Notes under the pieces: generated by a model | Seen by the model: the letters and a program-made list of their open reading frames with translations, nothing else | What the model was told of the DNA's origin: nothing | Database searches by the model: none | Shown here: positions 31,493 through 38,547 of the stretch, piece by piece | How the letters are laid out: each line of letters starts with the position of its first letter | How positions within the stretch are numbered: the first letter of the stretch is position 1 | Assembly: GCA_965237955.1 (NCBI GenBank) | Contig: OZ250169.1 | Coordinates: 6,848,001-6,912,000, forward strand | Length of the DNA: 64,000 bases | Direction: 5' to 3' | Source: Candidatus Marinacidobacterales bacterium | GTDB taxonomy: Bacteria > Acidobacteriota > Vicinamibacteria > Marinacidobacterales > SMYC01 | Position numbers and translations under genes: made by a program

Positions 31493-31750
31493 TTAGGCGA
31501 AGTACTCGGTGTTGATCGCGACGTACTCCTGCCACTTGTCGGGCAGCTCTTCCTCGGGGAAGATGGCCGTCACCGGGCACACGGGCTCGCAAGCGCCACA
31601 ATCGATGCACACGTCGGGATCGATGTAGAGCTGCTTGGCCTCTTCGAAATTGTCCTCGTCCTTGGTCGGATGAATGCAATCCACGGGACAAACTTCGACA
31701 CAAGCGGTGTCCTTAGTGCCGATGCAAGGCTCCGCGATATAGTAAGACAT
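31493..31750 (-). CDS. fdxA: 7Fe-type dicluster ferredoxin
   Basis: [20 protein letters not shown]...[21 protein letters not shown]. Confidence 0.92.
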
Positions 31751-31785
31751 TGTAGCTTTCCTCCTTCAGTTCGAAACTCACATGG

Positions 31786-33303
31786 CTACATGACGTCGAG
31801 CAGCCGTTGCGAGAACTCCGTCACCCGGTCCAAATAACCCCACAACAGGAGCCCAATAATATTAGGCACGACGAGCACGAAAAGTAAACCCGTGTACAGC
31901 GGCTGCAGCCGAAGCGGCGACGACGGCTCCGGGGTGTCCGCGCCCTCCATGAACATGGTTTTCAGAATCTTGACGTAGTAGAACGCCCCGATCGCGCTAT
32001 TCACCACGCCGATAACAGCGAACCAACCGAGACCAGCGCGGATGACAGCAGCGAAGATGTACCACTTGGCGAGAAAGCCCGCGAACGGCGGGATGCCCAT
32101 GAGCGAGAACAAGAAGATACCCATGACGAGCGTCAACATCGGTGCGCGCCGCCAGATGCCCGCGTAGTCTTTGATGTCGAAGCTGCCGACGTCGTTATGC
32201 ACGACGATCACGACGAGGAACGCGCCGAGGTTCATGAACAGATAAACGAGCATGTAGGCGATCATCGCCTGGATGCCTTCGCCCGAGAGCACCACGGCAC
32301 CCATCATGATGTAGCCGGCGTGCGCGATACTCGAATACGCCAAAAGACGTTTTAGATTCGTTTGTAGGAGTGCCGCGACGTTACCGAGGGTCATGGTGAT
32401 GACGGAGATGCCCATGAGGATCGTCTGCCAATCGACGCTACCGACCATCACCCACGTGGCCCCTTCCCCGTCCGGGGACGCCAGGCCGCCGTAGAAGAAA
32501 CGGATCAGCACGGCGAAGCCCGCGAGCTTCGGGCCTATTGACAAAAACGCGGTGACTGGAGTGGGCGCGCCGGTGTAGACGTCGGGACACCAGAAGTGAA
32601 ACGGCACCGTGGCCATCTTGAAACCGATGCCCGCCAGGACGAGGACGATGATGACCATGAGCGCCGGACCAGAGCTCGCCACCACTTCCTGGCTCGAGAG
32701 GGCGGTGCGGATGGCGTACAGGTCGAGGCTTCCGGTCAGCCCGTAGAGAAGCGACAACCCGAAGAGCATCGTTCCCGTCGACACCGCGCCGAATAAGATG
32801 TATTTGAGCGACGCTTCGTTCGAGAGTCGGTCCGTCTTCAAATACCCGACCATCACGTAGGATGCGACCGACACCGTCTCGAGCGCGAGGTAGATCATCA
32901 ACAAGTTGATCGAGTTGGCCATCCAAATGAGCGCCACCGTAACCGTGAGCAGGAGTACGAGAAGCTCGCCGTGATGGACCGGCCTGAGCTCGTTCGAGTG
33001 GAGCGTGAACAGCAGTATGAAGATCGAGGTGACGATGAAAAGAACGCGCAATACCTGCCCGAACCCATCGAACGCGACCATGTTGGAGAACAGTCCCGCC
33101 GATGGCGCATCCAGCGTCTGGAACGAGCAGAAGAGCGCGGCCACGAGGCCTACCAGCGATGGGAAGACGATGAGGACGCGACGTTCCCCGGGCGCCCGAT
33201 TCTTCGAGATCAAATCGAACACGAGCACGGCCATCAGCGTGAACACGAGCACGATTTCGGGCACGAAGTACTGCAAGCTGGAGATGGTATCGAGGCTCTC
33301 CAC
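31786..33303 (-). CDS. nuoN: NADH-quinone oxidoreductase subunit N
   Basis: SNEASLKY, GFKMATVPFHFWCPDVYTGAPTP, KRLLAYSSIAHAGY, GIPPFAGF. Confidence 0.92.
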   Translation of the reverse strand: MESLDTISSLQYFVPEIVLVFTLMAVLVFDLISKNRAPGERRVLIVFPSLVGLVAALFCSFQTLDAPSAGLFSNMVAFDGFGQVLRVLFIVTSIFILLFTLHSNELRPVHHGELLVLLLTVTVALIWMANSINLLMIYLALETVSVASYVMVGYLKTDRLSNEASLKYILFGAVSTGTMLFGLSLLYGLTGSLDLYAIRTALSSQEVVASSGPALMVIIVLVLAGIGFKMATVPFHFWCPDVYTGAPTPVTAFLSIGPKLAGFAVLIRFFYGGLASPDGEGATWVMVGSVDWQTILMGISVITMTLGNVAALLQTNLKRLLAYSSIAHAGYIMMGAVVLSGEGIQAMIAYMLVYLFMNLGAFLVVIVVHNDVGSFDIKDYAGIWRRAPMLTLVMGIFLFSLMGIPPFAGFLAKWYIFAAVIRAGLGWFAVIGVVNSAIGAFYYVKILKTMFMEGADTPEPSSPLRLQPLYTGLLFVLVVPNIIGLLLWGYLDRVTEFSQRLLDVM

Positions 33304-33322
33304 GTTTTATCCTTTCAACCTG

Positions 33323-33628
33323 TCAACCTTTCAGGGCCGTAGCCTCATCGAGACTCACGTCCTTCAAGATCCGATAGAGGGACATGACGATCGCGAGCGC
33401 GACGGCCGCCTCACAGGCGGCGATCGCGATGACAAAGAGAGCAAAGACCTGCCCCTCGGTATCTCCGGTGACGAACCTCGAAAAGGCCACCAGGTTGATG
33501 TTGGCCGAGTTGAAGATGAGCTCGATCGCCATCAACACGTTGATGGCGTTTTTTCTCGTGAGCATGCCATACAGGCCGAGCGAGAATAGAGCCGCAGCCA
33601 CGATCAAATAGTGCTCGAGGGGTATCAC
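33323..33628 (-). CDS. nuoK: NADH-quinone oxidoreductase subunit K
   Basis: LFSLGLYG...MAIELIFN...AACEAAVALAI; GTG overlaps nuoJ stop. Confidence 0.93.
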   Translation of the reverse strand: MIPLEHYLIVAAALFSLGLYGMLTRKNAINVLMAIELIFNSANINLVAFSRFVTGDTEGQVFALFVIAIAACEAAVALAIVMSLYRILKDVSLDEATALKG

Positions 33629-34134
33629 AGGTCCGTCCTCCGTCGCACGAGCATCGCGGCGCCGAGGAGTGCTACCAAAAGCAGCACCGAGGCGACCTCG
33701 AACGGCAGCACATACTCCGTCATCAGCGAGCGACCGATCGTCGCCGTCGTCGGCCCGTCCCCGCGGGGGATCGCCGTCTGACTCCACGGTGTGCGCGTAA
33801 TGACGGTGGTCAACAACACGAACACCGTGAGCGAGACCAACGCGCCAGGGACGACCTGAAACGTCGACGTGCTCAAATTCAGATTGTAGATGCGGTTCGT
33901 CAGCATCACGCCGAACAGAATCAGCGTCAAGATCCCGCCGACGTAGATGAGAACTTGCGCACCCGCGAGAAAATCGGCGCCGAGCATGGCGTAGAAAACC
34001 GCGACGCTGAAAAACGTCGCCAGAAGCGCGAACGCCGAGCGCACCAGGTTCTTGCCGTGAACCACGAAGACGGCGGAACCGAGCATCAGCACCGCGAAGA
34101 CCCAGAAGATGATTTGGGGGGCGAGGGTTTCCAT
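33625..34134 (-). CDS. nuoJ: NADH-quinone oxidoreductase subunit J
   Basis: QVLIYVGGI, YVLPFEVASVLLLVALLGA. Confidence 0.93.
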   Translation of the reverse strand: METLAPQIIFWVFAVLMLGSAVFVVHGKNLVRSAFALLATFFSVAVFYAMLGADFLAGAQVLIYVGGILTLILFGVMLTNRIYNLNLSTSTFQVVPGALVSLTVFVLLTTVITRTPWSQTAIPRGDGPTTATIGRSLMTEYVLPFEVASVLLLVALLGAAMLVRRRTDL

Positions 34135-37017: not shown

Positions 37018-37033
37018 TGTCCGGCCTCAGCTC

Positions 37034-37594
37034 TCAGTCGAACGGTCCTACACCGATGTTCTCGCCCTGCTGCGCGCGTTCCGAAAACTTCTCGTCGGGC
37101 TTGACTGGGATGCCGTGCCACTCGTCGGGCCACTCCCAATCTTTGCGAAGAGGATGTCCGGCCCAGTCTTCCGGAAGGAAGATGCGACGCAAATCGCTGT
37201 GGCCGACGAACTCGATGCCGAACAGGTCGTACGCCTCGCGTTCGTGCCAGTTCGCGGTCGGCCACACGCCTTCGAGCGTCGGCATCTTCGGTTTGTCGCG
37301 CGGCAAGATGACTTTCAACACGATCCAGTGACGGTGCTTGAGCGACGTCAGGTGAAGGACGACCTCGATCCGCGAGCTCTCCGGCTCCTTCTCGCTGAGG
37401 TAGTCCACTGCGGCGTGGCAGTGCAACATGTCGAACGCGAGCTCGGGCTCGTCGCGAAGATAGGTCGCGACGTCGACGATGGCGCCGGCATCGATGACGA
37501 GGAACGGATCCGGAACCTCGAGCTCGGCCCTGGTGATTTTCGCGGGAAACTTTTGCTCGATTTTTTTCTGAACGGCGGCAGCGTCGAGGCTCAA
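37034..37594 (-). CDS. nuoC: NADH-quinone oxidoreductase subunit C
   Basis: [30 protein letters not shown]. Confidence 0.93.
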
Positions 37595-38118
37595 ACAGGC
37601 ACCTCCTCCGTTACCGGCTTCTTCCGGCCTTCACGAGGATCGTCCATGAGTGAGCGTTCACGGATGACGTCCTGGAGCGCCATCACGCCGTAGAGAAGGG
37701 CTTCGGGCCGAGGCGGGCAACCGGGAACGTAGACGTCGACGGGAATGATCAGATCCACGCCCTTGACGACGTGGTAGCCGTACTGCCAGTAAGGACCACC
37801 GTTATTGGCGCAGCTCCCCATAGAAATGACGTACTTGGGTTCGGCCATCTGCTCGTAGAGGCGCTTGATACGGATCGCCATCTTGTGAGTCACCGTGCCC
37901 GCTACGATCATCAAGTCGGACTGGCGCGGGGTGGCGCGGGGGATGAGACCGAATCGATCCCAGTCGAAGCGGCTCGCACCCGCCGCCATCATCTCGATGG
38001 CGCAACAGGCCAAGCCGAACACCATCGGCCAAATGGCCGATTGGCGCGCCCAGTTCACGACGCTGTCCACCCGGGTGAGAACGAACTGTTGGTTGTCGAG
38101 GGATTTGATGAGATCCAT
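37591..38118 (-). CDS. nuoB: NADH-quinone oxidoreductase subunit B
   Basis: [23 protein letters not shown]. Confidence 0.95.
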
Positions 38119-38136
38119 GTCGCTCCTTCGCGCTTT

Positions 38137-38547
38137 CTAGGCGGCTTTCACGTTTCCGGAGGTTGCTTTGAGGGCGGTGCGCTCTTCTTCGCGCACCCAC
38201 TCGAGATCGCCTTTGCGCCACACGTCGGCGAGTCCGAGCATGAGCATGCCAATAAAGATGAACCCGGCGATGAGCGCGGGCATGCCGAGCTCCTTGACTA
38301 CGACCGCCCACGGTATGAGCATGACCGCTTCTACATCGAAGATGAGAAACACGAGCGCGAAAACGTAAAAGCGAATGTTGAACTGAACCCCCCAGGGTGT
38401 ACCGACAGGGTTCTCGCCGCACTCATAGGGAAGGACTTTCTCGCGGGTCGGATTGTGCGGTCGCACGAGGCTGGACCCGATCACGGCGCCTCCCACGACC
38501 AGCGCGCCCACCGCGAGGAACATCAAGATCCCAATGTATTCGATCAT
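38137..38547 (-). CDS. nuoA: NADH-quinone oxidoreductase subunit A
   Basis: PYECGE, FLIFDVE, WRKGDLEW. Confidence 0.95.
   Translation of the reverse strand: MIEYIGILMFLAVGALVVGGAVIGSSLVRPHNPTREKVLPYECGENPVGTPWGVQFNIRFYVFALVFLIFDVEAVMLIPWAVVVKELGMPALIAGFIFIGMLMLGLADVWRKGDLEWVREEERTALKATSGNVKAA

Follow-up and report, generated by a model that had tools for sequence, protein, structure and literature searches.

A complex I operon without nuoL and nuoM in a Marinacidobacterales genome, and its probable partner locus beside the ATP synthase genes

The operon and its nuoK-nuoN junction

The stretch of DNA analysed here (the window) comprises 64,000 nucleotides from a Candidatus Marinacidobacterales bacterium, positions 6,848,001 to 6,912,000 of contig OZ250169.1 (assembly GCA_965237955.1). 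Its 8.13-Mb genome (G000) is a single contig, estimated by tool to be 98% complete and 6.2% contaminated. Between window positions 31493 and 38547, on the minus strand, lies an operon for respiratory complex I (NADH:quinone oxidoreductase), in which ten open reading frames (ORFs), none with an internal stop, follow the order nuoABCDHIJK-N and then a ferredoxin gene. As an earlier reading made from the sequence alone had stated, the N-module genes (nuoEFG), nuoL and nuoM are missing from it. Operons of this type, with nuoK directly before nuoN, are referred to below as the cassette. Intact nuoL and nuoM genes occur 3.4 Mb away, and the two loci likely encode the halves of one chimeric enzyme.

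The first gene, nuoA (136 residues; 38137..38547), encodes a protein with the conserved loop Asp/Glu, and is followed by nuoB (175 residues; 37591..38118), with the tandem cysteines of the N2 cluster, nuoC (186 residues; 37034..37594) and nuoD (392 residues; 35839..37017). Next come nuoH (379 residues; 34700..35839), nuoI (182 residues, two [4Fe-4S] motifs; 34140..34688), nuoJ (169 residues; 33625..34134), nuoK (101 residues, both key Glu present; 33323..33628) and nuoN (505 residues, all checked axis residues intact; 31786..33303). For all nine nuo ORFs the best NCBIfam match is the corresponding Nuo family; NuoB, C (TIGR01961), D, H, K and N (TIGR01770) pass the curated cut-off, while NuoA, I and J fall below it. 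The genes were described in the sequence-only reading as tightly coupled, and the spacings agree: +18, -4, +16, -1, +11, +5 and -4 bp from nuoA to nuoK, 19 bp between nuoK and nuoN, and 35 bp between nuoN and the ferredoxin gene. The ratio of nonsynonymous to synonymous substitution rates (dN/dS) against the nearest relative (G006) is 0.05–0.15 for the nuo genes and 0.19 for the ferredoxin gene.

Alignment of NuoD to Thermus Nqo4 showed that the quinone-site His/His/Tyr are kept, whereas the CxxC pairs are absent at both ends. A group 4 [NiFe] hydrogenase is thus ruled out, in agreement with what had been read from these motifs before. The quinone-site and axis residues are labelled after E. 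coli and Thermus.

The 19-bp spacer between nuoK and nuoN (33304..33322) contains a real AGGTTGA-C-AGGTTGA repeat, which had been suspected of being a deletion scar. That suspicion did not hold. In all 30 NuoN-anchored loci (this genome and 29 relatives, in three families), nuoK is directly followed by nuoN and then the ferredoxin gene, and a contig from a second study bridges 33209–33653 with 10 substitutions and no gap, which together exclude a scar or misassembly at 33303–33323. In many of the 30 loci, the Shine-Dalgarno (SD) sequence of nuoN is supplied by the last nuoK codons (AAA GGA TAA/TAG), 3–8 bp away; the window spacer, with its own SD, is therefore best seen as a short duplication of the nuoK end. 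Among 80 loci anchored on NuoD, five end too soon to judge, and nuoK adjoins nuoN in 72 of the 75 that are informative. The other three, with the order K-L-M-N, are TMED144, one Marinimicrobia and one Bacteroidota record. The nuoK-nuoN adjacency is old.

The last gene of the operon (31493..31750) encodes an FdxA-like dicluster ferredoxin of 85 residues, a candidate electron donor, with cysteines spaced C9-x7-C17-x3-C21 and C48-x2-C51-x2-C54-x3-C58. The gene and its position are as first described; the 7Fe label is one that we presume from the motif, and the best family, FdxA, is matched below its cut-off (96.8 against 125 bits). It is the only match of its kind in the genome. Four of the 72 K-N loci end too soon to judge its presence, and it follows nuoN in 44/44 loci with downstream sequence and a NuoD identity of at least 73%.

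Upstream of nuoA, a σ70-like site on the minus strand (TTGCCG-17-TATAAT; 38695..38723) is supported by its position only, with one such site found against 2.1 expected by chance, and promoter and terminator scans gave nothing above chance level. Two RNA runs (X15 and X17) yielded only short contigs that bear on neither expression nor co-transcription. An isocitrate/isopropylmalate dehydrogenase-like gene (39042–40043) lies upstream of the operon and an M48-like peptidase gene (29896–31419) downstream; both are named by resemblance, and both flank the operon in many relatives of families f1 and f2.

The separate nuoL-nuoM pair and what its partner operons lack

The nuoL and nuoM genes lie at 3,504,970–3,508,647 of the genome. 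NuoL (691 residues) matches TIGR01974 at 722.8 bits (cut-off 407.5), and NuoM (527 residues) matches TIGR01972 at 625.8 bits (cut-off 263.8). A short-chain dehydrogenase/reductase gene stands before the pair, and an AtpZ-like ORF (named by its position), atpI, atpB and atpE stand directly behind it. Summed over both loci, the 11-subunit set NuoA, B, C, D, H, I, J, K, L, M and N is complete, with one copy of each gene and no second copy of any window gene or other complex I core in the genome. In alignments, the quinone-site and proton-axis residues are intact across both loci, and almost every row keeps the coupling residues checked in NuoA, B, D, H, J, K, N, L and M. Matching orphan nuoL and nuoM genes, which the earlier reading had named as counting against its nine-subunit proposal if they assemble with this complex, are thus present at the level of genes, in line with its caveat that L and M could be supplied in trans.

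Six proteins of the genome match PF00361, namely NuoN, NuoL, NuoM and three Mrp subunits encoded in a separate cluster at 6.24 Mb. Of the places suggested for the missing subunits, then, nuoL, nuoM and an Mrp cluster were found and a second nuo core was not, and with intact nuoL and nuoM present there is no need for Mrp subunits to stand in. The orphan NuoL and NuoM of this genome (orphan meaning encoded apart from other nuo genes) pass the NuoL and NuoM cut-offs and none of the Mrp cut-offs shown, and no small Mrp subunits are encoded alongside. In 38/38 cases, orphan NuoM has Lys/Ser/His at the Paracoccus positions, without the Asp found in E. coli and Thermus, the assignment of the triad Ser being our own reading.

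A decayed pair also occurs in the genome, at 2,730,588–2,732,943, between methyltransferase and selA-like genes. It consists of a 443-residue NuoM-like ORF that has lost the checked charged residues and a 345-residue ORF likely derived from NuoN, with no Pfam match. The pair is matched in 15/18 genomes of the family, the better matches being syntenic with open frames, at a dN/dS of 0.31, and the NuoM-like ORF is nearest to NuoM of the EFG-type operon.

Within the order, nuoL was matched in 41/41 genomes, with nuoM directly after it in 30/30 loci fetched and atpB after the pair in 18/20 regions; nuoK was found upstream of nuoL in none of 27 loci with at least 1 kb of upstream DNA. In the reduced family f3, nuoD is single in 14/14 genomes, and the set in each of five single-contig genomes is exactly L, M and N plus three Mrp-like genes in a cluster. 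Beyond the order, a separate L-M pair occurs in 20/20 distant Acidobacteriota with a K-N operon, and nuoN follows it in none of the 19 with visible downstream DNA. The native operon found in many Acidobacteriota, nuoA(B)CDH(I)JKLMN without E/F/G, was seen from A to N in 16/20 regions fetched, and atpB follows its nuoN in 14/20.

The gene content of the two loci is complementary across the phylum. In a sample of 110 genomes, counted from match coordinates, 46 have a NuoM of at least 610 bits, a threshold of our own choice. N adjoins M in 35 of these, nine carry the cassette, one has a lone M (G063) and one has M at a contig edge (G134). No cassette-type N occurs in the 35 genomes among the matches listed (including unpublished G084). 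In the nine cassette genomes, M is visibly without N in seven and at a contig edge in two, and G085, with a partial M, also fits the pattern. Three genomes with a complete second-type operon, that is, one related to the cassette but retaining L and M (G068, G086, G121), have no NuoM of at least 610 bits. In four others (G063, G124, G081, G112), nuoL is followed by nuoN with M missing and E/F/G visible upstream in three; a lone native-type nuoM occurs elsewhere with its checked residues intact, and an atpB match lies behind it in 3/4. The atp-linked remnant therefore holds what the partner operon lacks, whether L and M or M alone. Of the arguments from sequence, this one speaks most strongly for supply in trans. 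The N and M trees of 34 genomes share 21/31 splits.

Some relatives show further variants. The loci of the four M-less genomes (L308, L309, L311–L316) represent a second kind of two-locus hybrid. The cassette itself is broken further in L234, L236, L237 and L243 (f39) and in L240 and L242 (f14), where no more than J-K-N or A-H-J-K-N has stayed in one piece; the aligned rows keep the key residues. Lastly, L186 (G012, contig C4, 1,313,700–1,328,700) has the order J-K-two weak L/Mrp-like genes-M-N-A-B-C-D-E/F-G-H-I, with four antiporter-like genes; similar clusters occur in several f1 genomes and are absent from the genome under study.

The sequence-only reading had proposed a nine-subunit ferredoxin:quinone oxidoreductase with NuoN as its sole antiporter-like subunit and a lower ion/electron ratio, in which case nuoL and nuoM would serve something else. 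The age of the K-N coupling and the intact axis residues of NuoN are what such an enzyme would show, and a half-pumping yeast mutant subcomplex without ND4 and ND5 is described in PMC3160329. Nevertheless, none of the genomes examined has the cassette without a native-type nuoM, and neither in this genome nor in f3 is there another core that the orphan pair could join. In addition, a preprint model (10.64898/2026.10.08.757549) gives ND2/NuoN no coupled uptake or output path. A nine-subunit enzyme is accordingly very improbable.

It is also conceivable that NuoL and NuoM work apart from complex I, either as an Mrp-like antiporter or together with the Fo a/c subunits encoded behind them. Such a role would be in keeping with the order nuoL-nuoM-atpZ-I-B-E and with the promoter-like site that precedes it, which is not above chance. 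The atp link, however, is one that the native nuoA-N-atp operon already has, the content of the remnant varies with what the other operon lacks, and a separate Mrp cluster exists. We give this possibility hardly any weight.

Two ancestries

Gene trees point to different origins for the two loci. Cassette D, H and N group with FCB (Fibrobacteres-Chlorobi-Bacteroidetes) and complete second-type operons, with Shimodaira-Hasegawa-like approximate likelihood ratio test (SH-aLRT) supports of 98, 100 and 100, while orphan M and L nest among native atp-linked acidobacterial operons. Matches covering <60% of the query were dropped from the trees, and approximately unbiased (AU) tests used 30 chosen rows each. 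One locus labelled native, L229, has E/F/G matches and groups with the EFG type; it was kept in the trees and excluded from the AU tests. A grouping with the second type was rejected for orphan M (p 0.007) and orphan L (p 5e-8), a grouping with the native type was rejected for cassette N (p 1.4e-4) and cassette K (p 0.001), and a single origin of the orphans was rejected for both M (p 0.0065) and L (p 0.0007). By these sequence comparisons, D, H, K and N are of Marinimicrobia/Bacteroidota-type ancestry, and L and M are of native acidobacterial ancestry. Given the trees and AU results, the atp-linked pair is likely the remnant of a native operon from which A-K disappeared upstream, as did N from its place between M and atpZ. 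A first guess, that L and M derive from an EFG-type operon, was dropped, as the trees place them with the native one.

Could a single ancestral operon simply have been split in two, the discordance of the trees being an artefact of rate or sampling? Split nuo clusters are common according to PMC12361115, long branches were flagged in the trees, and outgroup sampling is thin. The identities nevertheless run the other way: NuoM of this genome is closer to native-operon M (59–65%) than to second-type M (44–50%), whereas its NuoD is closer to FCB D (59–60%) than to native D (45–53%). Moreover, complete native operons are interspersed with orphan M and L in the trees, a result for which no root is needed. 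A mere split is thus improbable.

A probable two-locus enzyme and its long NuoL helix

Taken together, the window operon and the orphan NuoL and NuoM likely form one chimeric 11-subunit ferredoxin:menaquinone oxidoreductase, an assembly that we infer from gene content, ancestry and conservation. Its ferredoxin would be reduced by two 2-oxoacid:ferredoxin oxidoreductases (OFORs) and would dock on NuoI/B/C/D in place of NuoEFG. The energy of quinone reduction, with menaquinone as the predicted acceptor, would be relayed by H, A, J, K and N and would cross an N/M interface between subunits of different lineages to reach NuoM and NuoL. These two would be the pumps, moving about four H+ for every two electrons if they are canonical. 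For NADH, the route would instead be the Na+-translocating NADH:quinone oxidoreductase (Na+-NQR). According to the preprint cited above, redox-coupled uptake occurs in ND5/ND4 only and the output path lies in ND5, not ND2; on that model, the pumping half would be the half encoded with the ATP synthase, and NuoN alone would not pump. As to its history, a host with the native operon (nuoA-N, then atpZIBE) would have held a second, Marinimicrobia/Bacteroidota-type operon as well, followed by complementary losses: L and M would have gone from the second operon, and everything except L and M from the native one. On the native side, this probably happened more than once.

The gene content of the genomes is consistent with this electron route. 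Two OFOR alpha genes and two futalosine-pathway genes occur in 5/5 genomes checked, and in G000 one OFOR alpha gene was confirmed with its beta neighbour. The ferredoxin, proposed as the input from the start, is a candidate donor that may well feed the complex; its gene is linked to the operon within the order, and OFORs are present. The Na+-NQR was confirmed, with NqrA, B, C, E and F above cut-off; a second, weak NqrB/RnfD-family match lies at 6,337,435–6,337,812. NDH2_C (PF22366) was not found in the five genomes, a weak test in that the profile matched only 3/14 controls.

No dedicated NuoEFG occurs in G000, and NuoF was found in 0/14 f3 genomes. The single NuoF-like gene of G000 sits between FdhF-like and HoxU/NuoG-like genes in a formate-dehydrogenase-like cluster, so a supply of NuoEFG in trans was rejected, and yet this gene may feed the complex in family f1. 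The NuoE/F-like gene (5.857–5.861 Mb) is apparently frameshifted, with a 464-codon frame and a second ORF for the C-terminal part, and the best matches to it in f1 relatives are mostly frames of 600–670.

Several points weigh against a joint 11-subunit assembly. The evidence for it is genomic throughout. A stable Yarrowia subcomplex that lacks ND4 and ND5 still pumps, at half stoichiometry (PMC3160329); a nine-subunit form is thus feasible on physical grounds and might occur side by side with the larger one. atpB was not found behind 19/20 distant orphan pairs (0.8–3.7 kb visible), and the ferredoxin is absent after nuoN in 24/24 more distant loci (NuoD identity at most 69%), which limits the ferredoxin linkage proposed earlier to the order. 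The genomes are kin, such that co-occurrence counts overstate support, and a match of N and M trees is expected for any two vertical genes and overstates it likewise; the N counts in the phylum sample hold among the matches listed and depend on the self-chosen 610-bit line. The AU groupings were set after the free trees had been seen, those for L, N and K used LG+G4 without a mixture model, and those for N and K were partly driven by the placement of EFG-type operons. Sampling outside Acidobacteriota was limited to three operons, and complete second-type operons are found inside the phylum too (G068, G086, G121), so that more than one donor or direction is conceivable for the second operon. 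Finally, an L-M-N arm would need a NuoL lateral helix 24 residues shorter than the one seen, an excess that the 11-subunit assembly leaves unexplained.

This helix raises another, more speculative possibility. Its span, counted from the KYxVD motif to QTG (the motifs allowed no measurement for 6 orphan rows, 1 native row and 8 of the EFG type), is 78 residues in this NuoL and in 10/10 order members, and 78–90 in orphan, native, second-type and FCB operons; by comparison, all 13 measurable EFG-type NuoL proteins have 54, and three M-less operons have 52. The extra 24 residues resemble a tandem repeat of a D-x3-VDG-x-VN segment, and at 1.5 Å each they would add about 36 Å, by our estimate near the size of one antiporter subunit. 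The orphan NuoL of L158, L159, L160, L172 and L245 reaches 89–90 by way of a Gly-rich insert.

Conceivably, then, the same two-locus enzyme could have four antiporter positions, L-M-M-N, filled by two copies of the single NuoM or by the decayed NuoM-like protein. Such a form would pump a larger number of protons for each electron pair, or would run electrons in reverse to ferredoxin. The same duplicated segment is seen, by eye, in NuoL of four operons with two true nuoM genes. In an AlphaFold model whose fold matches NuoL/ND5, residues 585–663 are predicted to be helical, and a similar insertion is described as marking two-NuoM (2M) enzymes in PMC9040806. On the other hand, operons with a single nuoM gene, whether native, second-type or FCB, also have the long helix, and such insertions are reported from ordinary complexes in the same source, hence the helix may be a relic. 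Values of pLDDT (predicted local distance difference test) fall below 50 at 637–669. G000 has no second intact nuoM, its only other NuoM-like ORF being the decayed one, and in f3 no decayed gene was found (0/14 genomes; 0/5 by profile). For this reason, and given its nearest relatives in the EFG-type operon, the decayed ORF was rejected as a universal fourth subunit. A four-pump form is possible but doubtful. The four operons with two nuoM genes belong to family f33 (L253–L256), have the order A-B-C-D-I-H-(J)-K-L-M-M-N and form a long-branched separate group.

Among known systems, cyanobacterial NDH-1 is ferredoxin-fed and exchanges its distal pump subunits. Its structure (PDB 6HUM) is the best solved sequence match for NuoN and NuoL; here, by contrast, there is one L/M pair, from a lineage other than that of the core. 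Alternative antiporter-like sets are noted in PMC3144371. A parallel in subunits is the Chlorobium-type complex I without NuoEFG (Moparthi and Hagerhall 2011, PMC3144371), which has the same 11 subunits, no N-module genes and no NiFe ligands. The present case differs in its two loci, cut at N/M and of differing ancestry, in the ferredoxin within the operon, and in a NuoL helix 24 residues longer than that of EFG-type operons. 2M complex I (via PMC9040806, PMC6606698 and PMC11636273) shares the lengthened NuoL helix and the lack of NuoE/F, whereas here there is one intact nuoM, and orphan M falls outside the long-branched group of four 2M operons fetched. The hybrid Complex_I_3 of Ca. Manganitrophaceae also has pump subunits of mixed ancestry, with helix insertions found in single-M paralogues too, and yet it is described as one gene cluster with five pumps (PMC9040806), unlike the complementary loss at two loci, recurring across the phylum, seen here. 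The Yarrowia nb8m-deletion subcomplex shows the same proximal/distal seam as the window gene set; it is, however, reported as a mutant (PMC3160329), whereas here the distal genes are present in trans.

Earlier publications already cover 11-subunit enzymes (PMC3144371), the splitting of nuo clusters (PMC12361115), enzymes of the 2M type (PMC6606698, PMC11636273) and a single hybrid (PMC9040806). Literature searches returned no description of a two-locus hybrid and no papers under "Marinacidobacter"; Chadwick 2018 and supplements lay outside the search scope, and the former may discuss such operons.

The arrangement is real, conserved and functional-looking, and most likely belongs to a chimeric 11-subunit complex I, not to a nine-subunit enzyme. 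It would represent natural, repeated module swaps of complex I, with the cut falling between a proximal part, made up of the Q-module together with H, A, J, K and N, and the pumps M and L at the distal end. A broader generalization, possible but rather improbable, is that the halves of complex I are interchangeable across lineages, with the nine-gene cassette having repeatedly displaced the native core in Acidobacteriota and docked on the resident NuoL/M, and with the long helix holding two copies of NuoM. If so, an L-M-M-N arm from one nuoM gene would be a state from which two-NuoM operons could arise. The pairing of a long NuoL helix with a single nuoM gene opens the origin of two-NuoM enzymes to testing. 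The swaps suggest that an N/M interface can accept partners of distant lineage, N itself staying with its own core, and this bears on how redox energy is carried to the pumps. Operons without nuoL and nuoM, or without nuoM, should not be read as low-stoichiometry enzymes before the atp locus has been checked.

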